A stretch of 64,000 bases of DNA. It comes from Nannocystis bainbridge (GTDB lineage Bacteria > Myxococcota_A > Polyangia > Nannocystales > Nannocystaceae). The stretch is from assembly GCF_028368995.1 (NCBI RefSeq), contig NZ_JAQNDL010000001.1, positions 4,320,001 through 4,384,000 of the forward strand, written 5' to 3'. Below are positions 4,732 to 62,414 of the stretch, in pieces (positions within the stretch are counted from its first letter, which is position 1; each line of letters opens with the position of its first letter). The position numbers were made by a program, and so were the translations under genes. The notes beneath the pieces were generated by a model. It had not been told where the DNA came from. It worked only from the letters and a program-made list of their open reading frames with translations, and did not search any database.

Positions 4732-4773
4732 TGTATTTCCGGACATGTTGCAACGGACAGGTCCCTTGCGACA
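4732..4773. repeat. Three phased 14-bp TGTC-N6-GACA-type units
   Basis: TGTATTTCCGGACA|TGTTGCAACGGACA|GGTCCCTTGCGACA. Confidence 0.75.
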
Positions 4774-5027
4774 GCCGCTTGTGGTGATCGCCGGCGCCGG
4801 TCGCGTGGCATGTCCGCGTGGAGATTAAAGTCACGGTTCATGGAGACGCGACTGCAGGCGGTGACGCTCTCCACCGCGGGACACCGGCCGCTCGCTCGAC
4901 GCGTTCTCCGCCTTACGGGCGCGAGAGGCCGAATTAATCAGTTGGAGCGCCTCTAACGCTGTGTATTATCCCCTCGTGTGGTCGCGCAGCCTCGCGCGAG
5001 CCGCCTGACCGAAGCGGAAGCCCCATC

Positions 5028-5948
5028 ATGGCCACGGAAGAATGGATTCAGGAGTCCCTCGCGCGGCTCGAGAGCCTCGAAGAGGAGCGGAAGAAGCACG
5101 AGGACGCGCTGGAGACTGCCAGCGATCCCGCCACGCTCCGCATGCACACGCAGGCCGTCGAGCGCCTCGAGGTGAAGATCCGGGCGCTCTACGCCGAGCT
5201 CGAAGCCGTCGCCGCTCAGGATGGTGGTGACGACTCCGACGACGATGCCGATGTCGCCGACAGCGACGACGACCTCGACGCCGCGCCCGAGCCGGTGCCC
5301 GTTCGTGCCGCGCCCGCCCGTCCCGCTCCCGCGCCGGCCGCTGCGCCCACGGCTTCTCCGTTCGGCTCCGCCGCGCCCGCGGCCTCTCCGTTCGGCTCCG
5401 CCGCGCCCGCAACCTCTCCGTTCGGCTCCGCTGCGCCCGCGGCGGCATCGTTCGACTCGGCACCGGTCTCGCCGTTCGGCGAAGTGCCCGCCGCGGCCCC
5501 GTTCGCCTCGGCCCCCGCCGAAATCCCCGCGTTCTCCCCGTCGCCCGCGGCCTCGTTCGACGCCGGCGACGATGTCGAGAGCAGCGGCTCGGGCAGCAAG
5601 ATCGGCATCATCATCGGCCTCGTCCTCGTGATCGGCGGCGCCGGTGCGTACTTCGCCCTCGGCCGCAAACCCGCCGAGGAGCCGGCCCCGCAGGTCGCTC
5701 CCACCGAGATCAAGGTGATCAAGAGCGGCGAGGTCCCGCCCGACACGCAGGGCCCGCGCACCGCCAAGGGCGGCGAAATCGACGCGACCCACGGCGCCCA
5801 CATCAAGGAGACGGACCGCCGTCCCAGCGGTGGCAGCGGCGGCGGCAGCAGCAACACCGCGCCCTCGTCGACCGAGCCGAAGAAGAAGAAGGAAGACAAG
5901 GCCACGAAGATCGAGTCGACCGACGACCCGCTGGCCGGCATCCGCTGA
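5028..5948 (+). CDS. Hypothetical single-pass membrane protein (coiled coil, acidic/Pro-Ala linker with SPFG repeats)
   Basis: N-terminal helical region, 30-bp repeats encoding ASPFGSAAPA, TM IGIIIGLVLVIGGAGAYFAL, strong GC3 bias. Confidence 0.8.
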   Translation: MATEEWIQESLARLESLEEERKKHEDALETASDPATLRMHTQAVERLEVKIRALYAELEAVAAQDGGDDSDDDADVADSDDDLDAAPEPVPVRAAPARPAPAPAAAPTASPFGSAAPAASPFGSAAPATSPFGSAAPAAASFDSAPVSPFGEVPAAAPFASAPAEIPAFSPSPAASFDAGDDVESSGSGSKIGIIIGLVLVIGGAGAYFALGRKPAEEPAPQVAPTEIKVIKSGEVPPDTQGPRTAKGGEIDATHGAHIKETDRRPSGGSGGGSSNTAPSSTEPKKKKEDKATKIESTDDPLAGIR

Positions 5949-5964
5949 GCCTCCTTCCCGTGCC

Positions 5965-6006
5965 TGCCTCAAGGGCCATGTCGCTTGCGACATGGCCCTT
6001 CGCACA
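5965..6006. repeat. Three phased 14-bp palindromic units
   Basis: TGCCTCAAGGGCCA|TGTCGCTTGCGACA|TGGCCCTTCGCACA. Confidence 0.75.
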
Positions 6007-10927: not shown

Positions 10928-13900
10928 GCAGCGACGACACCCGCAAGCCCAAGGACGACGACAAGAACCCGCTGCGCTCGATGGGCACCGCCCTCGGCGG
11001 GTGGGCCAAGCGCGTGGGCACGATCCTCAGCGAGGTCACCCAGCAAGGCCCGCCCGAGGAGGTCGCGCGAGCGATCGGCCAGGCGCGCGAGCTCAGCCTC
11101 GGCGGCGATTATGCCGGCGCCGCCGCCCGCCTGCGCGAGCCGCTGACGCAGCGCCCCGCGGACCCCTACCTCAAGCTCGCGCTGGCGATCACCCGCGTCT
11201 CCCAGGTCCTCACCGGCAACGCCCACCTGAGCGTCCTGCTCGAGCTCGCCGAGCCGGCCAACAAGCGCGGCGAGCGGGCCCTGCCCGAGACCCTCGCCGA
11301 GGCCACGCGGCTGCTCCTGCGCGACGAGTTCGACCCCGCGCTCGACCAGCTCCGCCGCGGCCGCAAGCTGATCGAAGACGCCTCCGAGCCCGCCGTGCTC
11401 GACGGTCGCTTCCTCCTCAACCTGCTCACCACGCTGCTTCAGGTCCGCCGCGGCCGCTTCGAGCGCGGCCTGCTCGAGTTTCAGCGGGCCCGCGCGCGCC
11501 TGCCCGAAGGGACACGTGGTCCCCTGCGCGCGCTGCTCGTCCGCGAGGGCGCGCAGCTGCTCCTCGCCGAAGATCACCTCGACGAGGCGATCGCCTGGCT
11601 CACCGGCGAGGCCGACCTCGGCGGCGGTGTTGCCGAGGTCGAACAGGGCACCGCCGCCGCGCGGGCCTACCTCGCCGTCGCCCTCGCCGCCAAGGGCGAC
11701 CGCATCGGCGCCGAGGCCGTGCGCAGCAAGATCGCCGCCCGGTCCGAGTGGGAGGAGCACCTCGTCCGCATCCACCTGCTCCTCGGGACAGGTGCCGAGG
11801 CGCGCACCCTCGCCCTCCGCCACCTCCAGCAGGACCCGCAGAACCCGCGGCGGAAGCGGCTGTGGGCCCTGTGCGAGGTCGCTGCCTGGCCGGTCGGCGG
11901 CTCGGACGCTACGCCCGCGATCCGCTCGACCGTGCTCGACGCCCTCGTCGACGCCGCCGCCTCGGCCGCCGGTGAGCGCCAGGAGCGGTACCTCCACGAG
12001 CTCGCCCACGTCGCCCTGCGCGCCGACCTCCTGTCCGATGGGACAGTCGCGCTGATCCGCAAGCGACTGCAGGACGGGGCCGTCTCGGCGCCCGAGGAGC
12101 TGCGGCTCGTGCACGCGCGTCGGCGCCTGCACGACAACGACGAGCGCGCGGCCGAGGATTTTCTGCCCGGCCCGCCGCCGCGCTTCCGCAGCCAGCCCGA
12201 CCTCGGCGGCCCCTTCGGCCCCGACGAGATCTCCCCGCTACGCGACGCCAGCCAGCGCCTCGGCGTCCTGCGGAGCCAGCGGGCCCTTGCGTCCGCCGAG
12301 TTCTGCCTCAAGAGCCATGTCCTCGAGGACAGCCAGCCCGTCAACCTGAACGAGGCCGCGCAGGAGTACCTCGTCGAGGTCCTCACCGAGGCCCCCGAGC
12401 ACGTCCGGGCGCGGGCCCTGCTCGCCCAGCTCGCCCAGCCGCTGCAGAGCAACCGCCTCGAAGATCTGCTCGCGGCGGCCACCGCCCTGCTCGCCGCGAT
12501 CCCCAGCCGCGTCCTCGGCGTCCCGATCACCGGCGTCGCCGACGCGCTCTCCGGCGTGATCGCGGCCCGCGAGCGCCTGGCCCGGCCGCTGACGATCGCC
12601 GTCATGGGCGAGTTCTCGTCCGGCAAGAGCACCTTCGTCAACGCGCTGCTCGGCGAGGTCGTCGCGCCGATGGGCGTGCTGCCTACCACCACCACGATCA
12701 ACTTCTTCCGCCGCGGCCCGACTGGCGGCGCGCGCGTGCACTACCGCGACGGCAGCATCAGCACGGTCGCGCGCGGCGAGGTGCACACCTTCCTGCGCGG
12801 CCTCGACGACGTGGCGGCGAGCCGGGTGCGGCACATGGAGATCGAGCGCACCTCGGCGCGGATGGGCGAGGCGGCGGTGGTCGACACGCCGGGCCTCAAC
12901 GCGCTCGACGGCTTTCACGAGCGGGTCGCCCGCGAGTTCGTCGACGAGGCCGACGCGATCATCTGGATCTTCTCGGCGACGCGCGGCGGCGCGGCATCGG
13001 AGGCGGGCGTGCTCAAGAGCATGCGCGCCGACGGCCGCCAGGTCCTCGGCGTCCTCAACAAGGTCGACACCCTCGACCCCGAGGAGCGCGCCGAGCTCAC
13101 CGACTATCTCAAGCAGCAGTTCGGCGACGTCCTGCTCGACATCATCCCGGTGTGCGCGAGTGATGCCCTCGAGCTGCGCACCGGCGCGGCCGATCCGTCG
13201 GCGCGCCACGACGATCCGTTCCGCGCCGTCGAGGACGCGCTCGAGAAGCATTTCCTCGCCCACGCCCGCGAGCTCAAGCGTTCGCTCGCCGCCCGTCGCC
13301 TCGGCGACGCCCTCGCCGGCACCGGCGCCGCCGTCCGCCACGCGATCGCCGGCCTCGAGGCCAAGGCCATCCAGAGCGGCCCCGTCGGCTCCGACCCCGT
13401 GCACCTCGAGGGTCGCCTCGTCGCGCTCGGCGACAAGGTCTACGGCCAGCTGCTCGCCCTCGACGATCTGCTCACCCGCGAGTGCCTCGCCCTCGGCGTC
13501 CTGCGGGCCGGCGCCGGCGGCAAGATCCTCGTCACCGACCAGGACGTCACCTACCTGACGGCTGTCCTTCGGGACAGCATCCTGCGCGCCCTTCAGGCCG
13601 ACCTCGGCGAGCTGTCCCAAGAGCCAGACTCCGACGCCTTCTCCGACATCCTCGCCGCGCGCCTGGTCCCGTGGGCCCAGGGTTACCTCGACAGCCTCGA
13701 GTCGTCGGGCTTCATCGCTTCGCTGATCCACGAGCACGGCCACGGCGTCGCCAAGGGCGAGGCGGCCCTGCGCGAGCGCTACCGCAGCGCCCTCGCCCCG
13801 GTCGCCGCCAGCTGGCGCAAGTTCATCCGCGGGCAGGTCCGGGCGATCCGCCAGAGCATCGCGCAGATGCAGCACCGCACCACCTCCGCCCCCAGCGCCG

Positions 13901-13977
13901 AAGCCCTGCGCCTGCGCGCCACCACCCTCGCCGGCGTCGACGCGCTGCTCTCGGGCCTCGAGCAGGTCGCCCCCTGA
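10924..13977 (+). CDS. Dynamin-like GTPase with ~550-aa N-terminal helical (TPR-like) extension
   Basis: GEFSSGKST, PMGVLPTT, VDTPG, LNKVD in C-terminal half; ATGA overlap. Confidence 0.88.
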   Translation: MSSDDTRKPKDDDKNPLRSMGTALGGWAKRVGTILSEVTQQGPPEEVARAIGQARELSLGGDYAGAAARLREPLTQRPADPYLKLALAITRVSQVLTGNAHLSVLLELAEPANKRGERALPETLAEATRLLLRDEFDPALDQLRRGRKLIEDASEPAVLDGRFLLNLLTTLLQVRRGRFERGLLEFQRARARLPEGTRGPLRALLVREGAQLLLAEDHLDEAIAWLTGEADLGGGVAEVEQGTAAARAYLAVALAAKGDRIGAEAVRSKIAARSEWEEHLVRIHLLLGTGAEARTLALRHLQQDPQNPRRKRLWALCEVAAWPVGGSDATPAIRSTVLDALVDAAASAAGERQERYLHELAHVALRADLLSDGTVALIRKRLQDGAVSAPEELRLVHARRRLHDNDERAAEDFLPGPPPRFRSQPDLGGPFGPDEISPLRDASQRLGVLRSQRALASAEFCLKSHVLEDSQPVNLNEAAQEYLVEVLTEAPEHVRARALLAQLAQPLQSNRLEDLLAAATALLAAIPSRVLGVPITGVADALSGVIAARERLARPLTIAVMGEFSSGKSTFVNALLGEVVAPMGVLPTTTTINFFRRGPTGGARVHYRDGSISTVARGEVHTFLRGLDDVAASRVRHMEIERTSARMGEAAVVDTPGLNALDGFHERVAREFVDEADAIIWIFSATRGGAASEAGVLKSMRADGRQVLGVLNKVDTLDPEERAELTDYLKQQFGDVLLDIIPVCASDALELRTGAADPSARHDDPFRAVEDALEKHFLAHARELKRSLAARRLGDALAGTGAAVRHAIAGLEAKAIQSGPVGSDPVHLEGRLVALGDKVYGQLLALDDLLTRECLALGVLRAGAGGKILVTDQDVTYLTAVLRDSILRALQADLGELSQEPDSDAFSDILAARLVPWAQGYLDSLESSGFIASLIHEHGHGVAKGEAALRERYRSALAPVAASWRKFIRGQVRAIRQSIAQMQHRTTSAPSAEALRLRATTLAGVDALLSGLEQVAP

Positions 13978-14908: not shown

Positions 14909-15108
14909 TGTCCCCCGGGACAGCACCGCTCGCGGCCGGCCTGTCTCTCGAGACAGCTCATTTCACCGACGTGAGCGATGAATCGAGCTGTCCCATGAGA
15001 CAGGCACTCATGTCTCACGAGACATGCTCAAGAGCACATGTCCCAGACATCATGCTCTCTGCCACATGTCTCTCGCGACATGCCGCCGAGGACATGTCCC
15101 TTTCGCCA
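14909..15108. repeat. Cluster of ten TGTC-N6-GACA-type palindromes, seven in a phased 14-bp array (15011-15108)
   Basis: Single sites at 14909, 14942, 14989; then CATG junction every 14 bp from 15011 to 15108, between convergent rnhB and ECF sigma genes. Confidence 0.9.
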
Positions 15109-15808: not shown

Positions 15809-16672
15809 TCAGCGGACCAGTCGGGTGCGGGGTCGCGGCTGGCAGCGCGGGCAAAACGCCCCGCTGCGGCCGCCGGACACGAAACCGACCAGCGCCTGGC
15901 CGCAGCGCGGGCACGGCTCCTCGGCGCGGCCGTAGACGCGCAGATCGTCCTGATTGCGGCCCACTTCGCCCTCCACGTTGCGGAAGTCCTTCAGCGTCGT
16001 CCCGCCGTTGTCGATCCCCCGCTGCAGCACAGCCACGATCGTGCCCGCCAGTCGCTCCCACGCGCTCGCGTGCAGCCGCTGCGCCTCCACCATGGGGAAG
16101 ATCCCCGCCGCGAACAGCGCCTCGACCGCGTAGATATTGCCGAGCCCGGCGATCGCCTCCTGGTCGAGCAGCGCGTCGCGGATCGGCCGGCGCGACGATC
16201 CCAGCCGCTCGGCCAGCACCGCGCCGCCGAACCCCTTCTCGAGCGGCTCCGGCCCCAGCGTCCCCAGCGGCTCGCTCGCCATCAGATCCTGCAGCCGCCC
16301 CGCCCGCAGCCCGCCGAAGCGGCGCGGGTCCACCAGCCGGACCTCGCGGTCGTCGCCCAGACGCAGCGCGAAGTGGGTGTGCGCCACCTTCGGCTGGGCC
16401 GTCGTCGTCACGCCGCAGCGCCCGCTCATCCCCAGGTGGATCACCAGCCCGTTGGTCTCCCCGTCCGGATCTGCGAACTCCCACACGATGTACTTGCCGC
16501 GTCTGCGGATGTCCTTCGGGACATTGTCCTTCAGACAGGCGAGATTCTCCTCCGCCCAGCTCTTGCCGACCCGCAGCTTGAACGCGCTGCGCCACACCTC
16601 GACCACCGGCGCGCGCAGCTGCGCCGCCTGCAGCCCGCGGCGGACCGACTCGACCTCAGGCAGCTCCGGCAC
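15809..16672 (-). CDS. mutM: Formamidopyrimidine-DNA glycosylase
   Basis: PELPEVE, RRGKY, HLGMSG, DPRRFG, AGLGNIY, C-terminal CPRC/CPRC zinc finger. Confidence 0.96.
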   Translation of the reverse strand: MPELPEVESVRRGLQAAQLRAPVVEVWRSAFKLRVGKSWAEENLACLKDNVPKDIRRRGKYIVWEFADPDGETNGLVIHLGMSGRCGVTTTAQPKVAHTHFALRLGDDREVRLVDPRRFGGLRAGRLQDLMASEPLGTLGPEPLEKGFGGAVLAERLGSSRRPIRDALLDQEAIAGLGNIYAVEALFAAGIFPMVEAQRLHASAWERLAGTIVAVLQRGIDNGGTTLKDFRNVEGEVGRNQDDLRVYGRAEEPCPRCGQALVGFVSGGRSGAFCPRCQPRPRTRLVR

Positions 16673-17519: not shown

Positions 17520-17614
17520 TGTCCCTCAGGACATCTGATTCCCGACCTCGCGCCGCGAATGACCTGTCCCTCGGGACATATCGCCTCGCGCGCGTCGACC
17601 TGTCCCTGCGGCCA
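17520..17614. repeat. Three ACC-TGTCCCTN2-G(A/C)CA palindromes between tsaD and rsmA
   Basis: 17520 TGTCCCTCAGGACA, 17565 TGTCCCTCGGGACA, 17601 TGTCCCTGCGGCCA. Confidence 0.85.
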
Positions 17615-17616: not shown

Positions 17617-18675
17617 TCACTCGCGGGCCCGCCCTTCGTCCAGCGCCAGGCTCGCGTAGACCTCGACCGGCGGCTCACGGCGCCGGCCGGCCGCCCAGCG
17701 CAGCGCAGCCGCCCCGCCGATCATCGCCGCATTGTCGCCGCAGTAGCGCAGCGGCGGCGCCCGCAGCACGAACCCCTCGCGGCTCGCCGCCTCGGCCAGC
17801 GCCGCCCGCAGCCCGCCGTTCGCCGACACCCCGCCGACGATCGTCACCAGCTTCGCGCCCACCCGTTTGCGGGCCACGCGCAGTTTCGCCACCAGCACCG
17901 CCACCACCGCCGCCTGGAACGACGCGCACACATCGGCCAGCGCCTGCCGCGACGACGGTTGCCCGTGTTGATCGACGTACACCGCCACCGCCGTCTTGAG
18001 CCCCGAGAACGAGAACTCGAGGTTCTCGCGCGACCCCAGCATCGCCCGCGGGAACGCCACCGCCGTCGGGTCGCCCTCCGCCGCCAGTCGATCGATCACC
18101 GGCCCGCCGGGGTAGCCGAGCCCGAGCAGCTTCGCCGCCTTGTCGAACGCCTCCCCCGCCGCGTCGTCGCGCGTGCTGCCGAGCACCTCGTAGCGGCCGA
18201 GCCCTTGCACGTGCACCAGCTCGCTGTGCCCGCCTGACACCGACAGCGCCAGGTGCGGCGTGAACTCGGCCGGCGGTACCTCGTCGTCCCCGAGGAACGG
18301 CGACACCAGGTGACCTTCCATGTGGTGCACCCCGACCAGCGGCAGACCTGTCGCAAGGGACAGCCCGCGCGCCAGCTGCACCGCCACCAGCAGCGCCCCC
18401 ACCAGCCCTGGCCCCTCGGTCACCCCGATCGCGTCGAACCACTCGAAGCCGACCCCCGCGCGTGCCAGCGCCTCGCGGACCACCGGCACCGCCGCCGTCA
18501 GGTGATGGCGACTCGCCAGCTCCGGCACCACCCCGCCGAACTGCGCGTGCAGCTCGACCTGCGAGGCGATCACGCTCACGCGCACATGCAGCCCCTCGAC
18601 CACGGCGCAGGCCGTCTCGTCACACGACGACTCGAGCGCGAGGATGCGGGGACCGGCCATCGACCTTTCGGTCAC
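17617..18675 (-). CDS. tsaD: tRNA N6-threonylcarbamoyladenosine transferase TsaD
   Basis: LESSCDET, GGVVPELASRHH, GPGLVGAL, HHMEGH, SGGH, DDAAGEAFDK, FSFSGLKT, DNAAMI. Confidence 0.97.
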   Translation of the reverse strand: MTERSMAGPRILALESSCDETACAVVEGLHVRVSVIASQVELHAQFGGVVPELASRHHLTAAVPVVREALARAGVGFEWFDAIGVTEGPGLVGALLVAVQLARGLSLATGLPLVGVHHMEGHLVSPFLGDDEVPPAEFTPHLALSVSGGHSELVHVQGLGRYEVLGSTRDDAAGEAFDKAAKLLGLGYPGGPVIDRLAAEGDPTAVAFPRAMLGSRENLEFSFSGLKTAVAVYVDQHGQPSSRQALADVCASFQAAVVAVLVAKLRVARKRVGAKLVTIVGGVSANGGLRAALAEAASREGFVLRAPPLRYCGDNAAMIGGAAALRWAAGRRREPPVEVYASLALDEGRARE

Positions 18676-20921
18676 GGCGCAGGGAGCTTGCGCTGGAGCG
18701 AGCGCAACTGCGCGCGGACCGTGGTGGCGTAGCGCGCCTTGGGGTCGAGTTCAAGATAGCGCTCGTATGCGTGGACCGCGGTCGCGACCTCGCCGAGCTC
18801 TTGCGCGATCACCCCGAGGGCCAGCTGCGCGTCGGCCAGCCCCGCATCGGCCTCGACCGCCGCCTTGGCGGCCGGCAGGGCCTCCGCGAACTTGCCCTGA
18901 TCGAGCCGCGCATTGGCCAGCAGCGCCTGCGCCTCCGCGTAGCCCGGCGCCTCCGTCACCAGCTCGACCAGCGTCGCCTCGGCGTCCTTCGCCTTGCCGT
19001 TCTTGTATTGCTTCTGCGCCGCCTCGAGCTTCGCCTGCTGCTCCGGCGAGATCGGCGTCCCCGGCGGCGGCGCCACCGCGTTCGTGGGCTCCGTCGCTGG
19101 CGGCGGCTCGGGCGCAGGTTCGATCACCGCGACCTTCTCGGGCGTCGTCGGCTCCGTCTTCGCCGGCTCGACCCTCGCCGGCTCGACCTTCTGCGGCTCC
19201 GGCTCCGGCTGGGCCCCCGCCACCGGCTCGACCGCCTGCTTGCTCGCCCCCGCCAGCAACCTGTCCCTTGGGACATCTGCCGAAGTCGGCCGCCACAGCA
19301 GCGCTGCCACCGCCGCGGCGCCCACCGCCATCAACCCCCACGGCCACAGCGAGCGTCGCCGCGGCGCCTCTTCGGCCGCCACCGCGAAGTTCGCCGCCGA
19401 CACCTGCGACGGCGCCGGCGTCACTCCCGAGTTCATCGCCAGCGTCTGCGCCACCAGCTCGTTGAGGCGACCGAGGTCCGCCGCGCTCTCCGAGAGCAGC
19501 GGCTGCCCGTCGCCTGGCGACGACTCGAACGCGCTGATCGTCGGGATCGCGCCGCTGTGTTCGCGCCTGCGCACGATCACCGAAGAGGATGGACGCGCCC
19601 GCGGCGTCGGCACGTCGCGCGGCATCACCAGCTCGCCGACGGCCTCCGCGCTCGGCGCTCCCATCGGCGACGCGATCGTGAACGGGCCCAGGCGATCGGT
19701 CACGCGATCAGGATGACCCACCGGGGTCACCTCTGGCGAGTCACCTGGCCCGTGAGACTCGTCCGGAATCCCGCCGACCAGCACATCGTCGTGCTCCGCC
19801 CCGCCGGAGCCCGGGAACGGCTGCGGGTAACTCGGCATCGGCGGCAGATCGGCCGCCGCCTGGGCCGGCGGCGTGAGCTCGGGCGGCGGCACCTGGATCG
19901 CCATCGAAGTCGCCTTGTGGAGGTCCCACAGCTCCAGGTTGCCCTCGACCGGCGTCTCTTGCGACTGCTCCAGCGCCGACTCGTGCGGCTCGAGCAGCAG
20001 CCCCTTGAAGTAGAGCTCGCTGACGTGCTCGAGCGCCTGCAGGTCGTCGAGGCCCGAGTCGTCGATCGCCTGGATGATCGTCCGCCGGGCGTTGAAGCGG
20101 CGCAGGATCGTCTGCTCCTGTGGCGTCAGCTCCGGGTCCGACTTCGCCGCCAGGCTCGTGTCGATGATGAGCACGTGGTCGAGCGGCGGCAGCCCCTCGA
20201 GCAGGCGGCCCCACTCGTCGACCCGCCGCATCCCCTCCATCAACAGGCTCTGCGTCGACTCCTCGATCGTCGGCACCCGGCTGATCGCCTTGAACTCGAC
20301 CTCGAACCGGCCGTCGCTGAGCCCCAGCAGCCGGAACACCGCCGCGTCCGCTTGCAGCCGCCCCATCTCCGCGTCGATCAGCCGCCCGTCGCGGAACCAC
20401 ACCGCCGCCCGCCCCAGGTCCGTCTCGAACTCGATCGTCCCGCTCTTGCGCGAGATCTCGATCGTCTGCATCAGGTCCACGATCGCCATGTCGGCGAGCT
20501 GCCCGCTGAACTTCGTACGCGCGTCCTTCTTGCCGATCCGCTCCTGCTGCTTTCGTTGCAGCAGCATCTTCACGCGGACCATGATCTCTTTGACGTAGAT
20601 CGGCCGCGTCAGGTAGTCGTCGACGCCGAGCTCGAGCCCGTGGACCTTGTCTTCCAGCTCGGTGGCCGAGGTCAGGAAGATGAAGGGGATCTGGCCCCAC
20701 TTGGCGTGGCTCTTGACGATCCGGCAGAACTCGAAGCCGCTGCCGTCGGGTAGCCGCGTATCCGACACGATCAGCTCAGGATCCGTCAGATCGAGGAACT
20801 GCAGCGCCTGCAGCATGTTCTCGGCCGCGGTGATGCTGTAGCCGGCCTTGCGGAGGCTGACCTCGAGCACCCGCCGCGTCCGGGCGTCCGCGTCGACGAT
20901 CAGCAGGTTTTGCCGGGCCAT
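18672..20921 (-). CDS. Response regulator: REC, DUF4388-like domain, disordered linker, TM and C-terminal TPR
   Basis: LLIVDAD..LIVSDTRLPDGSG..FIFLT; FSGQLADM.IVDLMQ..KSG DUF4388-like; TM WPWGLMAVGAAAVAALLW; TPR AYERYLELDP. Confidence 0.88.
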   Translation of the reverse strand: MARQNLLIVDADARTRRVLEVSLRKAGYSITAAENMLQALQFLDLTDPELIVSDTRLPDGSGFEFCRIVKSHAKWGQIPFIFLTSATELEDKVHGLELGVDDYLTRPIYVKEIMVRVKMLLQRKQQERIGKKDARTKFSGQLADMAIVDLMQTIEISRKSGTIEFETDLGRAAVWFRDGRLIDAEMGRLQADAAVFRLLGLSDGRFEVEFKAISRVPTIEESTQSLLMEGMRRVDEWGRLLEGLPPLDHVLIIDTSLAAKSDPELTPQEQTILRRFNARRTIIQAIDDSGLDDLQALEHVSELYFKGLLLEPHESALEQSQETPVEGNLELWDLHKATSMAIQVPPPELTPPAQAAADLPPMPSYPQPFPGSGGAEHDDVLVGGIPDESHGPGDSPEVTPVGHPDRVTDRLGPFTIASPMGAPSAEAVGELVMPRDVPTPRARPSSSVIVRRREHSGAIPTISAFESSPGDGQPLLSESAADLGRLNELVAQTLAMNSGVTPAPSQVSAANFAVAAEEAPRRRSLWPWGLMAVGAAAVAALLWRPTSADVPRDRLLAGASKQAVEPVAGAQPEPEPQKVEPARVEPAKTEPTTPEKVAVIEPAPEPPPATEPTNAVAPPPGTPISPEQQAKLEAAQKQYKNGKAKDAEATLVELVTEAPGYAEAQALLANARLDQGKFAEALPAAKAAVEADAGLADAQLALGVIAQELGEVATAVHAYERYLELDPKARYATTVRAQLRSLQRKLPAP

Positions 20922-27219: not shown

Positions 27220-27410
27220 TGTCCCTCGGGACATGTCTCTAAAGACATGCCGAGGCACATATCCACCTGGTCTTTGAGCCATGTTGCAGCGGGGTCACCG
27301 CCACAACTCGCTCGTCGCCCAGAATCATCTGTCTCTTGGGACAGCTCCGACGACGGCGGATCGAAACAGCCGAGCCCAGCGGCCTGCGCTGACGACTGTC
27401 CCCAAGGACA
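27220..27410. repeat. TGTC-N6-GACA cluster between convergent bioF and mnmE
   Basis: Perfect sites at 27220 and 27234 (tandem), 27330, 27397; variant at 27268. Confidence 0.85.
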
Positions 27411-39707: not shown

Positions 39708-39825
39708 CGCCCTCTCGGGCATGTCCGAAAGGACATGCCCGAAAGAGCGAAAGACAAAGGACATGCCCGAAAGGACATGTCCTTTCGTCGTCATGGACGC
39801 CGACGATCGGCTGTCCCGAAGGCCA
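39708..39825. repeat. Phased 14-bp palindrome array after gyrB
   Basis: TGTCCGAAAGGACA|TGCCCGAAAGAGCG|AAAGACAAAGGACA|TGCCCGAAAGGACA|TGTCCTTTCG.., plus TGTCCCGAAGGCCA at 39812. Confidence 0.85.
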
Positions 39826-46516: not shown

Positions 46517-46644
46517 GGCGCGGCGATCGTCCGGGTGACATGTCCTTTCGGACATGCACGTCCACCGCGTGACGTACGCGACCCGCGCTGGAGCGCCACC
46601 GGCTCTCCTCGCGCGAGTCGCTCGCGGGTGATTCTCCCGCGCCC

Positions 46645-47892: not shown

Positions 47893-47971
47893 ACTGCCTG
47901 GTCTTCGGGACAGGTGAAGCTGCCCCGAAGACCAGAATCGCTCGCGCGTCGACCTGTCTCGCGGGACAGGT

Positions 47972-51050: not shown

Positions 51051-51119
51051 GGCGGCCGGAGGCTAGTGCGGACGCGAGGCATATACAAGCGCGGCCCGCT
51101 GTGTGCTATGGGGCGCCGG

Positions 51120-51776: not shown

Positions 51777-51808
51777 GCGCCTGTCCTTGAGGACATGCTG
51801 GTAAGGAC

Positions 51809-52465
51809 ATGCGGAAGATCCGCCAGCACGTCAACCCGCTGAGCGCGCACTTCATGGTGACGCGCGCCCAGCCGGTCGCGCGCCCGCCAGAGCTCGCGCC
51901 CGGCTGCCCGATCGAGGTCGAGCTCGGCTGCGCCGACGCCGAGTTCAGCTTCGCCCGCGCGGCCGCTCGCCCGGACATGCTGATGGTCGGGCTCGACATC
52001 CGCGAGCCCTGCCTGGCCCGCAACCGCGTGCGCGCCGCCGAAGAGCGCCTGTCCAACCTGCTGTTCGGCTACGTCAACCTCAACGTCGACATCGACGTGG
52101 TGTTCGCGCCGGCCAGCGTCGACCGCTTCCACCTGCTGTTCCCCGACCCGTGGGTCAAGAAGAGTCACCACAAGCGGCGGGTGATCGAGCCGGCGCTGGT
52201 GGCGTCGCTGGCCGCGCAGCTGCGCCCCGGCGGCGAGCTGCACGTGGCCAGCGACGTGTTCGACGTGGCGCTCGAGATCATGGCGACGGTCGAGGACCCA
52301 TCGCTCGCGCACGTCGGCTTCGTCAACCAGGCCGGCCCGTGGGGCTTCTGGCGCGGCAACCCGTTCGAGGCCAGCCGCCGTGAACAGACGACGCTGCGCC
52401 GCGAACAGCGGGTGTGGCGGATGCGCTATGTCCGTGGCGACATGGCGGTTCCGACAGGTCCGTAA
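51809..52465 (+). CDS. trmB: tRNA (guanine-N7)-methyltransferase
   Basis: RQHVNP, VELGC, GLDIR, FPDPWVKKSHHKRR, ASD. Confidence 0.92.
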   Translation: MRKIRQHVNPLSAHFMVTRAQPVARPPELAPGCPIEVELGCADAEFSFARAAARPDMLMVGLDIREPCLARNRVRAAEERLSNLLFGYVNLNVDIDVVFAPASVDRFHLLFPDPWVKKSHHKRRVIEPALVASLAAQLRPGGELHVASDVFDVALEIMATVEDPSLAHVGFVNQAGPWGFWRGNPFEASRREQTTLRREQRVWRMRYVRGDMAVPTGP

Positions 52466-52577
52466 GGACATGGCGATCGGGGCATGTCTGTCTGGACATG
52501 TCGCATGTGACAGGTGAGTGGCAGGTCGGGCCGGAGCGACCTGGCCGTCTCGCTTTCAGGACATGTCGCCTGCGACA
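52429..52577. repeat. Six phased 14-bp palindromic units (52429-52512) plus a pair at 52550-52577
   Basis: TGTCCGTGGCGACA|TGGCGGTTCCGACA|GGTCCGTAAGGACA|TGGCGATCGGGGCA|TGTCTGTCTGGACA|TGTCGCATGTGACA. Confidence 0.9.
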
Positions 52578-52667
52578 GGTCAGCGGGGGGTCGATCCGGA
52601 GCGACCCTGGTCGCTCCGCCAGGCGCGAGCACCCGCCGCGGTCCGGCGGGGGGTTCACCCGAGGGCT

Positions 52668-54830: not shown

Positions 54831-56972
<2,142 letters not shown>

Positions 56973-57325
56973 GGTGGCGAAGAGTAGCAGCGGCGCCAGC
57001 TGGCGCGAGTCCGCGCCCGCCGCACGAAGCTCACGCGGCCCGAAGACCTCGAAGACGGCGGAATGGCGGCTGCGAGGCCCGACGCGGCGGCTCCGAATTC
57101 GGCGCTGGTCTGGCCTGGGCGGAGGTCGGCGAGGCTGGGCACGCTGCTCGCTCGTCGAGGTGCCAGCAGGTGAGGAAGAAATCATGATCGCCGGCGCATC
57201 GAGCGGCCTTTCGAAGATGTCCGCGAGGACATGGTCGAAGAGACATGTATGCGCGCGGCCACTACCTCGCAAGGCGAGACGTCGCGGCCTTGTGCAGCGC
57301 CGGTGCGAGGTGCTAAGCCGAGGCG

Positions 57326-58084
57326 ATGCGGGCGCGAGTTCCGGCGTGGCGAGGCCTGTATGCGATCCTCGATCTGCCGCACGCGGGTGGGCTCGAGCCG
57401 GCGGTGGCGCTGGCCGGGCTGCTCGGCGTCATGGAGATCGGTCCGGAGAAAGCTCCCATGATCGTGCAGCTGCGGGCCAAGCAGGCCGATGCGGCGGAGC
57501 GCGGGCGGCTGGTGCGTGAGCTGGCGCCCATGGTCCGCGCGGCGGGAGGTCTGCTGATCGTCGACGACGACTTCGAGGCGGCGATGGCAGGCGCCGACGG
57601 GGTTCACCTCGGCCAGGAGGACATGGCCGAGCGGACAGGTGACCGACCCTGGTCCGAGCTGCTGGCGGAGCTGCGAAGCGCGGCGCCGCCAGGCTTCTTG
57701 ATCGGGCTTTCGACGCACTCGCGAGCGCAGGTGGAGCTCGCGGCTGGGCTCGATGTCGACTACATCGGCTTCGGGCCGATCCTGCAGACCCGCTCCAAAC
57801 TGGCGCAGGAGCCCGCTGTCGGCTTCGAAGCGCTGGAGCAGGTCTGCGCGATCTCGCCGCACCCGGTCGTGGCGATCGGCGGCCTCGGGGCTGAGGAGGC
57901 GCTGCGGTGTGCAAGGGCGGGAGCAGCCGGCGTGGCGATGATCGGCGCGCTGGTGGGCACGACCGAGGCGGAGGTCCGCGCTCGGGCGGTGGACCTGGCG
58001 ACGGCGCTGAAGCACGCGATTCACGCGCTCGGTTCCGCCGTATCGCCCGCAGGCGGGCCGGCTGCCCGATCGCCGGCTTCCTGA
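57326..58084 (+). CDS. thiE: Thiamine phosphate synthase
   Basis: [40 protein letters not shown]. Confidence 0.9.
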
Positions 58085-58504: not shown

Positions 58505-58574
58505 TGTCCGATCGGGCAGGGCCTTTGGCGCAGGTTCTATCGCGCATGTCGCAAGGGACATGGCCCTTGCGACA
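58505..58574. repeat. Five phased 14-bp palindromic units
   Basis: TGTCCGATCGGGCA|GGGCCTTTGGCGCA|GGTTCTATCGCGCA|TGTCGCAAGGGACA|TGGCCCTTGCGACA. Confidence 0.8.
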
Positions 58575-58580: not shown

Positions 58581-59780
58581 TCAGCTGTGCTCGAGCACGA
58601 GGGCGATGCCCTGGCCGCCGCCGATGCAGGCGGCGCCGACGGCGTAGCGGCCGGAGCGGCGGCGGAGCTCGTGGACGAGGTGGGCGGTGATGCGCGCGCC
58701 CGAGGCGCCGAGCGGGTGGCCGAGAGCGATGGCGCCGCCGTCGACATTGGTCTTGTCGCGGTCGAGGCCGAGCTCCTTCTCGCAGGCGAGGTACTGAGCG
58801 GCGAAGGCCTCGTTGATCTCGAACAGGTCGACGTCGCCCTGGGCGAGGCCGGCGCGGGCGAGGGCGCCGCGGATGGCGGGCACGGGGCCGATGCCCATGA
58901 TCGTCGGCTCGACGCCGGCGACGTGCCACTGGACGACGCGCGCGAGCGAGGTGAGGCCGTGACGCTTGACGGCCTCTTCGCTGGCGAGCACGAGCGCGGC
59001 GCCGCCGTCGCAGATGCCGGAGGCGTTACCGGCCGTGACGACGCCGTCCTTCTTGAAGGAGGCCGGCAACTTGCCCATGGTCTCGAGGCTGGCGTCGCGG
59101 CGCGCGTGCTCGTCGACGGCGAACTGGGTCACGCCCTTCTTGGACTTGATCTCGACCGGCGCGAGCTCGGCGGTGAAGCGGCCGGCGTCCTGCGCGGCGG
59201 CCCAGGTCTGCTGCGAGCGCAGGCCGTAGGCGTCGCACTCGGCGCGGCTGATGCCGTACTTCTCGGCCAGGTTCTCGGCGGTGATCGCCATCGAGCAGCC
59301 GGCGTACGGGTCGGTGAGCGAGGTCCACAGGCTGTCCTCGAGCTTGAGGTCGACGCCGAGCCGGGCGCCCCAGCGCAGGCCGCGACCGACGTGCGGGGCC
59401 TGGCTCATGCTCTCGGAGCCGCCGACGAGCGCGATCTCGGCGTCGCCGGCGAGGATGTCGTGGATGCCGCTGACGACCGCCTGGAAGCCCGAACCGCACA
59501 GGCGGTTGACGGTGAGCGCGGGGACGGCGATCGGGACGCCGCTCTTGAGGCCGACGTGGCGCGCGAGGTAGATCGCGTCGGCCGAGGTCTGGGCGACGTT
59601 GCCGAACACCACGGTGTCGACGACCTCGGGGCTGACGCCGCCGGCCTGCAGCGCGGCCTTGGCGGCGACCACGGCGAGGTCAGTCGCGGTGAAGTCCTTC
59701 AGCGCGCCGCCGAAGGTGCCGAAGGGCGTGCGCTTGGCCGCGACGATATGGATGGCGCGAGAGAGTGGCTTCTTGGTCAT
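58581..59780 (-). CDS. Acetyl-CoA C-acyltransferase (thiolase)
   Basis: RTPFG, NRLCGSG, TAGNASGICDG, EINEAFA, GAIALGHPLGASG, CIGGGQG. Confidence 0.96.
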   Translation of the reverse strand: MTKKPLSRAIHIVAAKRTPFGTFGGALKDFTATDLAVVAAKAALQAGGVSPEVVDTVVFGNVAQTSADAIYLARHVGLKSGVPIAVPALTVNRLCGSGFQAVVSGIHDILAGDAEIALVGGSESMSQAPHVGRGLRWGARLGVDLKLEDSLWTSLTDPYAGCSMAITAENLAEKYGISRAECDAYGLRSQQTWAAAQDAGRFTAELAPVEIKSKKGVTQFAVDEHARRDASLETMGKLPASFKKDGVVTAGNASGICDGGAALVLASEEAVKRHGLTSLARVVQWHVAGVEPTIMGIGPVPAIRGALARAGLAQGDVDLFEINEAFAAQYLACEKELGLDRDKTNVDGGAIALGHPLGASGARITAHLVHELRRRSGRYAVGAACIGGGQGIALVLEHS

Positions 59781-59867
59781 GCGTGGGCTCGTTGCTCGAA
59801 GTATGCGGGAGGGGTGCAGGCCGCGAAAGGTTGAGCATCCTCACGGTTTGCGCTTCAATCTCGGAGG

Positions 59868-60662
59868 TTGCTGCTCTCGCTCGTCATCGCGGCCTCGCTG
59901 CTCGACGCCTCACCGGCTCCGCCGTCCGTGCCGGAGCCGGCGCCCGCGCTCGGCACGGTGTCGGTCGCCCCGCCGAGGACGACGCTGCAGCGACTTGAGG
60001 TTCCGCAAACTCCGGCGAGCGAGACCTCGACGCGCCGGTCGTCACGCGATGCGCTGCGGCGGTACCTCACTCGCCCGGTGGCGCGCTCGGCCCGCTATCT
60101 CGATCACGGGGTGATCGCGGTCGGCGTGGGTCTGGGGTTGCCGCAGATCTATCGCCTCGAGCTGCAATTGGGGCTGCTCGATCACCTGACGCTCGGCGCG
60201 ACGGCACACTGGCTCCCGGGACAGGTGCGGCCGAGCTGGTCGCCGAAGGCGGCGGTGGCGTTCTTCCGCGGGCGACTGCTCGAGGTGGGGGCGTTCTATC
60301 AGCAGGTGCTGTACCCGCCGACGCGCGATGACGGCGACCCGACGACGATCGCGTTCCAGCGCCGCGCGCACTACCTGATGGCGAGCGTGAGCCTGTCGCA
60401 GGCGTGGCTGACCGGCGGCTTCGACATCGGCTGGGCCCGCGGCCGCGAGGCGCTGACGCTGCTGACGCCGGAAGACCTCGAGACGAGCACGGCGTTCACC
60501 GTCCGCGACCGCCTCGGCGCAGGCCTTCACCTGCGCTTCGGCACACGCCGCGTCGGCGTGACGATGCAAGCCTGGTACCCGTACCTGGCGGCCGAACTGG
60601 TGCTCGACGTCCGCTTCGGAGCGTTCGAGATGCGCCGGCGCGGCGGCTGGCGCGAGCTGTGA
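59868..60662 (+). CDS. Hypothetical exported, beta-rich protein
   Basis: Hydrophobic N-terminus, amphipathic strands. Confidence 0.6.
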   Translation: MLLSLVIAASLLDASPAPPSVPEPAPALGTVSVAPPRTTLQRLEVPQTPASETSTRRSSRDALRRYLTRPVARSARYLDHGVIAVGVGLGLPQIYRLELQLGLLDHLTLGATAHWLPGQVRPSWSPKAAVAFFRGRLLEVGAFYQQVLYPPTRDDGDPTTIAFQRRAHYLMASVSLSQAWLTGGFDIGWARGREALTLLTPEDLETSTAFTVRDRLGAGLHLRFGTRRVGVTMQAWYPYLAAELVLDVRFGAFEMRRRGGWREL

Positions 60663-60779
60663 GCTGCCCGTAGAGACAGGTCCGTGCCGAGCGAGCTGTC
60701 CTGAAGGACATGCAGTCGATGACTCACGCTCGGGCGGATCGATGCCGCCGCGAGTTCGTGAATCAACCTGTCCCGAAGG

Positions 60780-62414
60780 TCAGGCGCGGAGGCGGGCGAC
60801 GCCGAGGCGCTCGGCGTGCTTCAGCAGGCGCACGGTGGCGGCGACCTGGCGGGCGCGGAAGTCCTCGTCGATGGTGATGTCGAGGTACTCGAACAGCTCG
60901 TGCTGGCTGGTGGAGCGGCCGACGCGGGCGGTGATCTTGTCGATCGAGACGTCCATCAGCGGGATCGGCGGGGGCGGCTGCGGGTCGCCCAGGTACTCGG
61001 GGTTGATACACGACGAGAGGTCGTTGGCGGAGGCCATGCGGTCGTTGAGGGCGGAGACGCCGAAGCGACGCATGAGGGTGGCGCCGATCGAGCAGTGCTC
61101 GAACTGGGTGCTGACGACGCAGCCCTTGCGGACGCGCGGGCCGATGACGAGCGAGGGCACACGGAAGCCCATCTGCGTGAACTCGGCCTCGTCGTCGACG
61201 GTGGTCGGCGGCGCGACGTGGTCGTAGAAGCCGCCGTGCTCGTCGTAGGTGACGATGAACAGGGTCTTCTCCCAGCCGGGTCCCTCGGCGAGGGCCTTGT
61301 AGAGCGAGCCGATCAAGATCTGGCCGAGCTGGATGTCGTGCTCGGGGTGGTCATCGTTGGAGGTGAAGCCAGGGTCGATGACGGTGAAGTTGGGCAGGGT
61401 GCCGGCGGCCGCGTCGGCGAAGAAGCGGTCGAGGTTGTTGGGGTTGGTCAGCGCGTCGAGGCTGAAGCCGCCGATGCCGTCCGCCAGCTTGCCCCACACG
61501 GTCGGGATCAGCGGGAAGGCACCCGCGACCCAGGGGACGTCGGTGAAGTAGATCCGGCTGGTCAGGCCAGCGTCGTCGCAGGCGTGCCACAGGGTCTGCA
61601 GGAAGGGCGACGGGAAGTTGCTCTTGCCGCCCTCGGAGCTGCAGGCGTGCACGTAGTAGCGGTTGGGCCAGGTCGGGCCCATGACCGAGGCGAACCACCG
61701 ATCGCACAGGGCGAAGTTGTCGGCGAGCGCCCACGACACGGGGATCTGCTCGCGCACGTGGTAACCCATGACCTGCTCGGCGTAGCCGGGGTTCTTCTTC
61801 TCGTTCTCGAACACGAACCCGTTGCAGGCGCCGAGGTTGAACTGCGTGTGGCACTCGTCCCACTCGTGCGGCGGATCCTTGGGCTGGTACTCGTCGAGCT
61901 TGTAGACGGTGACGTCGCCGAGACCGATGCTCGGGTTCCACTCGTCGCCGTCGAGGCCGTCGACCACGCGACCCTCGAGGAACTTGAGGGCGCCGAAGTA
62001 GTGATCGAACGAGCGGTTCTCCATCACCAGGACGACGATGTGCTCGATGCCGGCGAGCAGCTCCTCGGGGCTGAGGTCGCTGGCGGCACACTCGCTGACC
62101 GGCGACTCCGTGGTCGATTCGCCGGTGCTTTCGCCGGTGGTCGTGCTGTCGTCGGTGGTGGTCGACGAGCTGGTGGTGCCGGTGTCGCTGGCGCCGCCGT
62201 CCGAGGTGGTCGGCACGTCGGTCGTGCTCGAACCATCGCCGGTGGTCGTGGTGCCGGTGGTCGGGTCGGAGGAGCCGCCGTCGGTGGTGCCGCTGGGCTC
62301 GCTCCCGTCGTCACCGCAGCCGAACGCGGTGGTGCCGGCGAGCGCAGCGATCGCCTGCAGCGCCCGTCGGCGGGAGATCCGTGTCCGGGCCGCCCGCAGG
62401 TACTTCTTCGTCAT
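60780..62414 (-). CDS. Phosphoesterase / phospholipase C family Tat lipoprotein
   Basis: ISRRRAL Tat motif, AFGC lipobox, Thr/Ser linker, MENRSFDHYFG, GPTWPNR, DDHP, TYDEHGGFYDHV. Confidence 0.92.
   Translation of the reverse strand: MTKKYLRAARTRISRRRALQAIAALAGTTAFGCGDDGSEPSGTTDGGSSDPTTGTTTTGDGSSTTDVPTTSDGGASDTGTTSSSTTTDDSTTTGESTGESTTESPVSECAASDLSPEELLAGIEHIVVLVMENRSFDHYFGALKFLEGRVVDGLDGDEWNPSIGLGDVTVYKLDEYQPKDPPHEWDECHTQFNLGACNGFVFENEKKNPGYAEQVMGYHVREQIPVSWALADNFALCDRWFASVMGPTWPNRYYVHACSSEGGKSNFPSPFLQTLWHACDDAGLTSRIYFTDVPWVAGAFPLIPTVWGKLADGIGGFSLDALTNPNNLDRFFADAAAGTLPNFTVIDPGFTSNDDHPEHDIQLGQILIGSLYKALAEGPGWEKTLFIVTYDEHGGFYDHVAPPTTVDDEAEFTQMGFRVPSLVIGPRVRKGCVVSTQFEHCSIGATLMRRFGVSALNDRMASANDLSSCINPEYLGDPQPPPPIPLMDVSIDKITARVGRSTSQHELFEYLDITIDEDFRARQVAATVRLLKHAERLGVARLRA

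Follow-up and report, generated by a model that had tools for sequence, protein, structure and literature searches.

Abundant DNA words in bacterial chromosomes

Selected DNA words have each opened a piece of chromosome biology, as Chi, the FtsK-orienting polar sequences (KOPS), the DNA uptake sequence (DUS) and uptake signal sequence (USS), the highly iterated palindrome HIP1 and the repetitive extragenic palindromes (REP) all illustrate. Here we describe a further word, the gapped palindrome TGTC-N6-GACA, in a 64,000-nucleotide stretch of the chromosome of Nannocystis bainbridge (the window; G000:C1:4320001-4384000, 67-73% GC) and in the genome from which it comes (G000; 11,048,555 bases in 5 contigs, 71-72% GC, completeness 90.5%). 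The palindrome is genuine, lineage-specific and strongly selected. It belongs to the HIP1/DUS-like class of features, and three things set it apart from HIP1 and from DUS/USS: the geometry of a gapped dyad, arrays kept in register and a location at the ends of genes.

HIP1 (GCGATCGC) resembles the Nannocystis motif in being palindromic, tens- to hundreds-fold over-represented, present in both coding and non-coding DNA, lineage-specific, conserved beyond neutral expectation and quasi-periodic in its spacing. Its function went unexplained for decades (PMC5861425), and it is recognized by two methylases (PMC4390886, PMC13756078). HIP1 is a contiguous 8-mer with known methylases, whereas the motif described here is gapped (4+6+4, or 20 bp when extended) with a free centre, occurs in Myxococcota, forms arrays in a 14-bp register, is concentrated after stop codons and has no methylase tied to it. 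The DUS of Neisseria and the USS of Pasteurellaceae are likewise specific to a genus or family, recur about once per 1-3 kb in and after genes, are poor in foreign DNA and are maintained as if selected. These words are contiguous and lack symmetry, and a hairpin arises only from an inverted pair of them, whereas each unit of the present motif is itself a fixed-gap dyad.

REP sequences and the related bacterial interspersed mosaic elements (BIMEs) and REP doublets (REPINs) are also short palindromes clustered in gene-end gaps, and REPs bind architectural proteins and gyrase, as described in part in PMC2817692. However, REPs are imperfect hairpins of 20-40 nt that are strictly extragenic, carry a GTAG/CGTC tag and are paired with a REP-associated tyrosine transposase (RAYT), none of which applies here. 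Among regulator sites, those of MrpC and CRP have the same half-site letters, TGTC/GACA, arranged as a dyad for a dimer. The MrpC motif of Myxococcus xanthus, TGTY-N8-RAC, has a spacer of 8 rather than 6 (PMC4320627), and the CRP site is given as TGTGA-N6-TCACA; MrpC sites lie in promoters and number hundreds, whereas the motif here avoids promoters and numbers thousands. The palindromic sites matS, parS, NBS (bound by Noc) and SBS (bound by SlmA) serve dimeric chromosome-organizing proteins, but they occur in tens of copies within restricted regions, compared with thousands of copies here, from the origin region to the terminus. Finally, the NifA upstream activator sequence, TGT-N10-ACA, has similar TGT...ACA arms and is read by a Fis-type helix-turn-helix (HTH) domain of the HTH_8 class, to which the candidate family discussed below also belongs. 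In the present motif the arms stand 2 bp closer (TGT-N8-ACA), and NifA sites are few and located upstream of sigma-54 promoters.

Abundance and form of the motif

The initial annotation of the window listed 29 perfect copies of TGTC-N6-GACA against a chance expectation of about 0.5. The window contains exactly 29, every one at the position listed, and the estimate was of the right order: 100 dinucleotide-preserving shuffles of the window gave a mean of 0.89 copies and a maximum of 4, so that none of the 100 reached 29. The genome-wide count over spacings that was proposed there as a check gives a sharp peak at n=6, with 3,663 copies compared with 29-155 at each of the spacings n=0-5 and n=7-15. 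The expectation at n=6 from the genome's own TGTC and GACA frequencies is 117 copies, and three control arm pairs at the same spacing reach 39, 66 and 59 copies with no peak. The many copies with one or two mismatches that had been noted in the window are also a feature of the whole genome: one-mismatch copies number 8,008 at n=6, versus 1,421-3,428 at n=4, 5, 7 and 8, which implies a motif family about 9,000 strong. When all gapped palindromes with 4-mer arms were scanned blind (n=0-14), the top ranks held facets of this one motif only, namely ATGT-N8-ACAT, TGTC-N6-GACA, ACAT-N12-ATGT, GACATGTC, CATG-N10-CATG and GTCC-N4-GGAC. At about one perfect site per 3 kb of resident DNA, the palindrome exceeds compositional, Markov and codon-aware nulls by a wide margin, as members of the HIP class do.

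A position matrix built from the 3,663 sites extends over about 20 bp, R-C-(A/C)-TGTC-C-N4-G-GACA-(T/G)-G-Y, or RCA-TGTCC-N4-GGACA-TGY in short form, around a unit length of 14 bp. The centre had been described as often Y-N4-R, and the base frequencies bear this out, with C at 0.75 and T at 0.16 in position 5, and G at 0.72 and A at 0.17 in position 10. To judge from the one-mismatch copies, the least tolerant arm positions are G2 and C13, and the most tolerant are T1, T3, A12 and A14.

Units often abut, joined as GACATGTC, because the flank of one unit already provides three-quarters of the arm of the next; this 8-mer has 2,237 copies, whereas each of ten other palindromic 8-mers has 3-984. 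The distances from one start to another peak at 14, 28, 42 and 56 bp (144, 88, 61 and 36 pairs, respectively). With up to two arm mismatches allowed, a neighbouring unit in the 14-bp register accompanies 1,117 of the 2,257 intergenic sites and 411 of the 1,360 coding sites, and the corresponding counts at periods of 13 or 15 are 1-5. Abutting units resemble one another in their centres no more than random pairs do (2.22 versus 2.28 of 6 positions, with identity in 4 of 144), and slippage therefore does not explain the arrays. Local tandem duplications of 40-100 bp, with a site in each unit, are present in some gaps.

Placement relative to genes

Genes were called with a simple codon-usage caller of our own, whose crudeness is a limitation of what follows; it returned 8,158 genes occupying 84.7% of the genome. 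These calls assign 2,257 sites to intergenic and 1,360 to coding DNA, with another 46 across a gene end, which places about 62% of the copies within the 15% of the genome that is non-coding. The gaps between convergent genes contain 3.31 sites per kb (555 of 1,450 gaps occupied), those between tandem genes 1.2-1.3 (720 of 4,360) and those between divergent genes 0.46 (164 of 1,465), with coding DNA at about 0.145 sites per kb; control spacings across the whole genome give 0.003-0.014. Density tracks the degree of change that each kind of DNA tolerates, falling from convergent through tandem and divergent gaps to coding sequence. Within tandem gaps the stop-codon side is crowded, with 216 sites in the first tenth versus 24 in the last, and the 100 bp upstream of the next start codon are avoided. 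A site starts within 50 nt of the stop codon of 1,110 of the 8,158 genes, and only 134 have a perfect site on the promoter side. Within coding DNA, density declines across quintiles of codon usage from 0.246 per kb in the lowest to 0.053 in the highest, and to 0.031 in the top 3%; the highest fifth of genes still has about 5 times the number of coding sites expected from shuffles.

Two familiar kinds of site were considered and rejected. An intrinsic terminator is contradicted by the composition behind the sites, where no T-run is found and the frequency of T never exceeds 0.28 between positions +18 and +34, and by the tRNA genes, only 2 of 102 of which have a site within 50 nt downstream. An MrpC/CRP operator, the nearest of the characterized regulator sites and one that the initial annotation had already set aside on grounds of spacing, would have a spacer of 8, and n=8 is the rarest spacing of all (29 copies versus 3,663 at n=6); promoters, moreover, are avoided.

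Coding copies and their conservation

The 1,360 coding copies compare with 87-105 in five synonymous-codon shuffles of all called genes, a codon-preserving null of the kind that the initial annotation had called for, and coding counts at n=4, 5, 7 and 8 remain within about two-fold of the same shuffles. In the window, six of the seven coding sites fall in four genes with Pfam matches, encoding a dynamin-family GTPase, Fpg/MutM, TsaD and a response regulator, and the site at 16510 lies inside the matched Fpg domain of MutM. The seventh is in the last 40 nt of a methyltransferase gene.

The window was aligned to the syntenic 70 kb of five sister species, with about 58 kb aligning at 89-91% identity. 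For the seven coding sites, the 35 comparisons yielded arm differences at 0 of 280 positions and centre differences at 34 of 210. For intergenic sites, 35 of 110 comparisons were gap-free, with 14 of 280 arm positions and 72 of 210 centre positions differing, and the remaining 75 involved unalignable sequence. Thus, none of the seven coding sites has changed any of its eight arm bases in any of the five sister species. For a random coding 14-mer, the probability that the same eight positions are kept in five species is 0.311, and seven of seven would be expected by chance about 3 times in 10,000, a figure to be taken as a guide and not as a P-value, since the species are related. Each sister species has 23-30 sites in its syntenic 70 kb, although many of the intergenic sites are not shared.

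A second alignment that adds three distant congeners (73-80% identity) gives some indication of the age of the coding sites. Five of six are absent from the distant congeners, and the site at 13563 is older. Relative to those congeners, the site in tsaD is the product of point changes, GCG to TCC (Ala to Ser) and ACC to the rare ACA; the site at 13563 keeps a rare T-ending Ala codon. As in the HIP class, then, the motif is present in both coding and non-coding DNA and is conserved between species beyond the neutral rate, and the comparisons indicate that the coding copies are real and selected.

Distribution along the chromosome and across the lineage

The window carries an origin gene set at 27550-39704, with mnmE and yidC on the minus strand followed by dnaA, dnaN, recF and gyrB on the plus strand, and the GC skew changes sign within it; together, these features identify the window as the replication-origin region. 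A stretch of 1.7 kb between yidC and dnaA (31034-32767) has no called gene, and the 12.3 kb from 27411 to 39721 have no perfect site. The terminus is marked by a skew switch of opposite sense in contig C3. Most 100-kb bins of the genome contain 20-60 sites, a few bins in accessory islands contain 4-10, the origin bins have 48 and 38 and the terminus bins 26 and 20. Density is thus roughly even from origin region to terminus, and the motif is not a macrodomain marker. The comparison of density between origin and terminus had been suggested by the initial annotation, and it went against marking of the matS or parS type; with 3,663 copies, present at the origin region and terminus alike, the motif was rejected as a marker of the matS, parS, NBS or SBS kind.

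Site-free stretches of 30-44 kb nevertheless exist, and they are of two kinds, accessory or mosaic on the one hand and conserved on the other. The first comprises an accessory island with multi-copy elements and no synteny in the five sister genomes, together with a mosaic region. About 165 kb of contig C1 (C1:1138240-1303510) are nearly site-free, with lower GC and weak codon-usage scores; the 20 kb of it that were tested showed no synteny in the sister genomes, and short segments, such as L149 4221-4581 and 11652-11863, are multi-copy. This segment looks like an accessory island rich in mobile elements. The second kind is represented by C2:2100542-2143127, where 42.6 kb with 47 short genes contain zero sites. 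Over the 20 kb compared, this region is fully syntenic with the five sister genomes at 96-97% identity, versus about 91% in the window, and a 1.2-kb gene within it is duplicated close by. It is probably the ribosomal-protein/EF-Tu region. Sites are thus lacking in DNA acquired recently and, on this probable assignment, in the operons that are most strongly expressed and conserved.

Judged by TsaD, the nearest named relatives are two records of Nannocystis (93% and 92% identity), with Nannocystaceae next. Enrichment of the motif extends to all 10 genomes of the genus, with 240-3,957 copies compared with 6-48 of a reversed control pattern, and to two further genera of the family (4 of 4 and 5 of 5 genomes), with 283-705 copies compared with 9-109. 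Eleven other genera of the family lie within 1-5 times the control, and 12 genomes from other families of the class have 16-69 copies, which is 0.9-17 times control counts that are themselves very low. Hyper-abundance specific to a lineage, here three genera, with deserts in accessory DNA, is the pattern of a DUS/USS-like word. A variant hyper-abundant gapped palindrome was sought in 166 kb of G011 and 119 kb of G013 and none stood out; the 8 and 3 sites found in these samples look like the same motif. In the G011 sample (L132-L140, 62% GC), TGTA-N2-TACA was seen 16 times, versus a median of 0 at other spacings, and this may be a different, local over-represented palindrome.

The literature searched contains no occurrence of the gapped motif spellings, and publications on Nannocystis and palindromes were unrelated by title. 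Among the matches listed for GACATGTC were p53 response elements, virus genomes and unrelated studies. Passages of PMC5217627 and PMC3733652, and broader literature searches, describe no such myxobacterial motif.

How the motif may be recognized

The combination of a fixed spacing with a free centre points to a dimeric protein site on DNA and not to a REP-type RNA hairpin, which was also the preference expressed in the initial annotation. Tests for base pairing, whether in RNA or in DNA, agree with this. Watson-Crick pairing is 0.57 at positions 5/10, compared with 0.54 expected from marginal frequencies, and 0.34 at 6/9, compared with 0.32. Covariation was found at none of the pairs 5/10, 6/9 and -1/16, and mutual information at the first two was 0.009-0.018 bits. 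Among 1,139 sites oriented by their upstream gene, five position pairs on the transcribed strand showed no preference for RNA-compatible T:G/G:T (596) over C:A/A:C (634). With neither covariation nor G:U bias, with arms that are kept, with unrelated flanks and with no RAYT, the earlier preference for a protein site has held up well. The overall interpretation offered at that time fared unevenly: the symmetric protein site on DNA was supported, and chromosome marking of the macrodomain type was not, given the even density. "Chromosome-marking system" is therefore a label and not a result.

We consider the motif probably to be a protein-recognition site on double-stranded DNA. The fuller reading, a lineage-specific gapped dyad read by a dimeric protein, we favour with somewhat less assurance, and the assignment of an architectural or roadblock role to such a site is tentative. 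A symmetric, presumably dimeric, sequence-specific protein would read the motif on double-stranded DNA with two reading heads one helical turn apart, the arm centres being separated by 10 bp. It would make its main contacts at G2/C13 and C4/G11 and leave the centre untouched. In the mechanism that we prefer, the reader would be an abundant architectural protein of the nucleoid-associated type, occupying single sites and polymerizing on the in-register arrays at gene ends. Selection, possibly aided by a drive linked to DNA transfer, would maintain about one perfect site per 3 kb of resident DNA and would remove sites that obstruct promoters or heavy transcription.

Several points weigh against this reading. 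The evidence on function consists of sequence statistics, and no methyltransferase, uptake receptor or nucleoid protein was found to be tied to the motif in our analysis. The sister species are related lineages and not independent trials. The highest site density among called genes is in the lowest-scoring fifth, some of which may not be genes. A general function at gene ends is not universal, because only 2 of 102 tRNA genes have a nearby downstream site and the inferred ribosomal-protein region has zero. The extended palindrome could fold into an 8-bp hairpin just past stop codons, where RNA 3' hairpins would lie, and position pair 0/15 does have a small excess of complementary pairs in intergenic sites (0.65 versus 0.54; mutual information 0.056 bits). 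The same pair has no excess in coding sites (0.004 bits), and two locally copied flank sub-types could account for it. Finally, site-by-site selection on thousands of sites of weak effect is hard to credit, and a transfer-linked drive of the kind proposed for DUS and USS may fit the coding copies better than an architectural role does.

Such a drive is the alternative that survives best, although we regard it as rather unlikely. An import or transfer protein would prefer fragments bearing the motif, alleles that gain it would be transmitted more often, and copies would accumulate wherever they are tolerated, without benefit at any single locus. The hyper-abundance of a lineage-specific motif with a gradient across genera is consistent with this, as are its presence in coding DNA against codon preference and at a cost in amino acids, its absence from an accessory island without counterpart in the sister genomes, a density that follows tolerance and not one genomic feature, and the maintenance of 23-30 sites per syntenic 70 kb in five sister species despite intergenic turnover. 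Known uptake sequences also cluster after genes (PMC5217627). The strict 14-bp register of the arrays, however, is not predicted by biased uptake. Known uptake sequences are asymmetric 9-12-mers, whereas the motif is a symmetric gapped dyad. No receptor or competence phenotype has been linked to it, and natural transformation of Nannocystis is undocumented in the literature searched.

It is less likely still that the motif is the target of a methyltransferase, orphan or linked to restriction, as has been proposed for HIP1, which two methylases recognize. Here an enzyme resembling Type I or Type IIB, with the same recognition domain twice over, would read the dyad across its 6-bp gap. Enzymes of this sort typically have gapped symmetric targets with spacers of 5-6 bp and one adenine per arm. 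The genome has two Type I loci and eight weaker matches to N6-methylases. Nonetheless, the one of the two HsdS specificity subunits that was examined is full length and has halves that are only 29% identical over a single short alignable stretch, so that this subunit should read an asymmetric target. The adenines A12 and A14 are, furthermore, among the most tolerant positions in one-mismatch copies, and G2/C13 the least. Restriction targets are usually avoided and not amplified.

An element acting at the level of RNA is a slightly weaker candidate again, and an improbable one. It would be a hairpin at the 3' end of mRNA that serves as a bidirectional terminator or stabilizer, perhaps bound by an RNA-binding protein; since the arms are palindromic, either strand would yield the same stem. 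The position of sites just past stop codons, their greatest density in convergent gaps and their avoidance of promoters would suit such an element, as would an extended consensus that allows an 8-bp stem and the small complementary excess at 0/15 in intergenic sites. Yet a structural hairpin has no need of one fixed stem sequence, and the pairs 5/10, 6/9 and -1/16 lack covariation, with no preference for G:U over A:C. The lack of a T-run, the scarcity of sites behind tRNA genes and the conservation of the 1,360 copies within genes also tell against it.

Mobile-element relatives were sought directly. A search for the Y1/RAYT transposase (PF01797) gave no match in the genome, bearing in mind its 90.5% completeness; of 14 control genomes put through it, 6 gave a match. 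A distant match to the flank was found for 671 of the 2,257 intergenic sites, but in three top-ranked sites that were inspected with the motif masked, the matching sequence consisted of more degenerate units in the 14-bp register and no larger mobile element. Fragments of a MITE (a miniature transposable element with inverted repeats) or REP, which the initial annotation had named as a possible undoing of its proposal, are thus not indicated: flanks are unrelated apart from further motif units. REP/REPIN membership was rejected on four counts, namely the 1,360 of 3,663 copies in genes, the absence of a RAYT, the lack of stem pairing and the lack of the GTAG or CGTC tag that marks the REP superfamilies (PMC3733652). 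A transposase-copied selfish element of REP/REPIN or MITE type is accordingly the least probable explanation, already largely refuted: it would account for the fast intergenic turnover between species, for clusters that recall BIMEs and for the local 40-100-bp duplications each with a site, but not for coding sites made by point substitution in place rather than by insertion, nor for neighbouring units with unrelated centres.

A candidate reader

If the motif is read by a dimeric protein, genes with a site of their own on the promoter side are one place to look for it, and 27 of the 62 small genes of this type were inspected. One encodes a stand-alone Fis-type HTH of 72 residues (Pfam HTH_8, 30 bits with a cut-off of 22). 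Proteins of about 60-80 residues of this type form a family with 9 called members and 11 tblastn hits in the genome, at C1:1913456-1913674 and ten further places, and this is the largest family of small DNA-binding proteins in the genome. Matches number 3-14 in all 19 motif-rich genomes; 36 of 40 motif-poor genomes have 1 and the other four have 2-3. Copy number correlates with motif density over the 59 genomes (Spearman 0.72), which are not independent; for the medians of 14 genera the coefficient is 0.55, and the 19 motif-rich genomes on their own give 0.76. A control family of ArsR-type small HTH proteins gives -0.06. The half-site has a precedent in the NifA upstream activator sequence, read by a domain of the same type.

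Other observations do not favour the family. Its recognition helix, LLGITRHALKRR, is also unchanged in seven motif-poor genomes, drawn from six genera, in which the gene is single-copy. The genomes are kin, and GyrB identities do not resolve whether the three motif-rich genera belong to a single clade. The site upstream of the 72-residue gene has an atypical centre, and the other paralogs have no perfect site within 220 bp upstream of the start, so that autoregulation by the Fis-type HTH is not supported. Several of the paralogs have in common an upstream box resembling CTTGATCCGCGC. A sequence search of the Protein Data Bank (PDB) with the 72-residue protein gave 0 hits, and a predicted two-copy complex scored 0.27 against a mark of 0.42, which speaks neither for nor against the family. 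On balance, we think it doubtful that this family is the reader. Equally speculative is the complete scheme in which Fis-type dimers would read TGTC-N6-GACA, polymerize on arrays at about 1 in 7 gene ends as insulators or roadblocks, and mark resident versus incoming DNA, as a previously unknown system in Nannocystis and two sister genera.

Significance

After three decades, an explanation of HIP1 is only starting to emerge, and the Nannocystis motif offers a new, clean case in a different phylum. It is also a tractable one. A fixed gapped dyad predicts a dimeric reader and in-register arrays predict cooperative binding; the sharp phylogenetic boundary, with three genera in and eleven out, allows comparative gene hunting; and the named relatives include cultured type strains. 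Were an architectural reader at gene ends to be confirmed, it would amount to a sequence-programmed partitioning of a bacterial chromosome of 11-13 Mb, and a signal for uptake or transfer would be the first of dyad type and the first in Myxococcota. In either event, the motif is a ready marker of native versus acquired DNA in these genomes, and it is likely to need respect in the engineering of Nannocystis, a producer of natural products.

Sites of the window

The individual sites of the window, given here in window coordinates and without strand, illustrate these patterns. The first, 5979..5992, is intergenic, 31 nt past the stop of a gene at 5028-5948 (+), and its arms are intact in 5 of 5 sister species. 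Three sites lie in the dynamin-family GTPase gene at 10924-13977 (+). Site 12032..12045 is identical in 5 of 5 sister species and absent from 3 of 3 distant congeners. Site 12318..12331 has intact arms in all five and a centre that differs in all five, a change that alters the protein (LE to SG). Site 13563..13576 is the oldest in the window: all five close species have it, and so do two of the three distant congeners, G009 and G002.

Downstream of this gene, the RNase HII gene (14157-14906, +) and an extracytoplasmic function (ECF) sigma factor gene (15113-15730, -) converge on a gap that is occupied by an array at 14909..15080, consisting of five perfect sites (14909, 14942, 14989, 15011 and 15067) together with degenerate units. 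The first site of the array is 3 nt past the RNase HII stop, and the array has undergone turnover between sister species. The Fpg/MutM glycosylase gene (15809-16672, -) contains site 16510..16523, with arms intact in 5 of 5 sister species and the site absent in distant congeners. Two sites in the tandem gap downstream of the tsaD stop, 17520 and 17565 (17520..17578), are partly conserved, and sister species have extra in-register units there. Within tsaD itself (17617-18660, -), site 18349..18362 is identical in 5 of 5 sister species, and in the adjacent gene for a response regulator with tetratricopeptide repeats (TPR; 18672-20921, -) site 19262..19275 has intact arms in all five.

Sites 27220 and 27234 (27220..27247) abut through GACATGTC, have unrelated centres and begin 13 nt past the stop of an aminotransferase gene (26035-27207, +). 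In the same convergent gap, between this gene and mnmE (27550-28872, -), sites 27330..27343 and 27397..27410 are alignable in 0 of 5 sister species. On the far side of the origin genes, site 39722..39735 lies 18 nt past the gyrB stop (37230-39704, +), after which degenerate in-register units run to about 39790. Site 46541..46554 is 25 nt past the stop of a gene at 44369-46516 (+) that is convergent with a CarD-like gene (46645-47139, -). This convergent gap (46505-46650) measures 18 bp at its shortest and 488 bp at its longest in six species with about 90% identity, and its longest version consists of tandem units of about 100 bp with a site or near-site in each.

The leucyl-aminopeptidase gene (47972-49444, -) has site 47955..47968 at 4 nt from its stop, in a convergent gap; the site aligns in 3 of 5 species, where the arms are kept and the centres differ. 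Site 51782..51795 is 6 nt past the transaldolase stop (50856-51776, +); a gap-free alignment was obtained for 4 of 5 species, and in these its arms are intact. The methyltransferase gene (51809-52465, +) has site 52429..52442 in its last 40 nt, with arms intact and centres different in 5 of 5. The convergent gap that follows contains the abutting sites 52485 and 52499 (52485..52512) and site 52564..52577, 91 nt from the stop of a gene at 52668-53177 (-). A second repeat near 52,520-52,620 (GGAGCGACC...) is not abundant in the genome: its arms have 92 and 96 copies, with one hairpin pair.

Toward the end of the window, site 58547..58560 lies in a convergent gap 21 nt from the thiolase stop (58581-59780, -) and has intact arms in 4 of 5 species. 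Site 60697..60710 is 35 nt past the stop of a gene at 60078-60662 (+), convergent with a phosphoesterase gene (60780-62414, -); after the same stop, 4 of 5 sister species have a further site starting at 2 nt, where the present genome has a one-mismatch copy at 60665. A rare promoter-side site, 57218..57231, is found in the divergent gap between uvrB (54831-56972, -) and a gene at 57326-58084 (+), a gap that is rearranged relative to the sister species. The segment 57000-57330 comprises 331 bp here and 2.5-2.7 kb in at least four of the five sister genomes, where long open frames are present on the reverse strand, and the comparison indicates a lineage-specific deletion or replacement in N. bainbridge.

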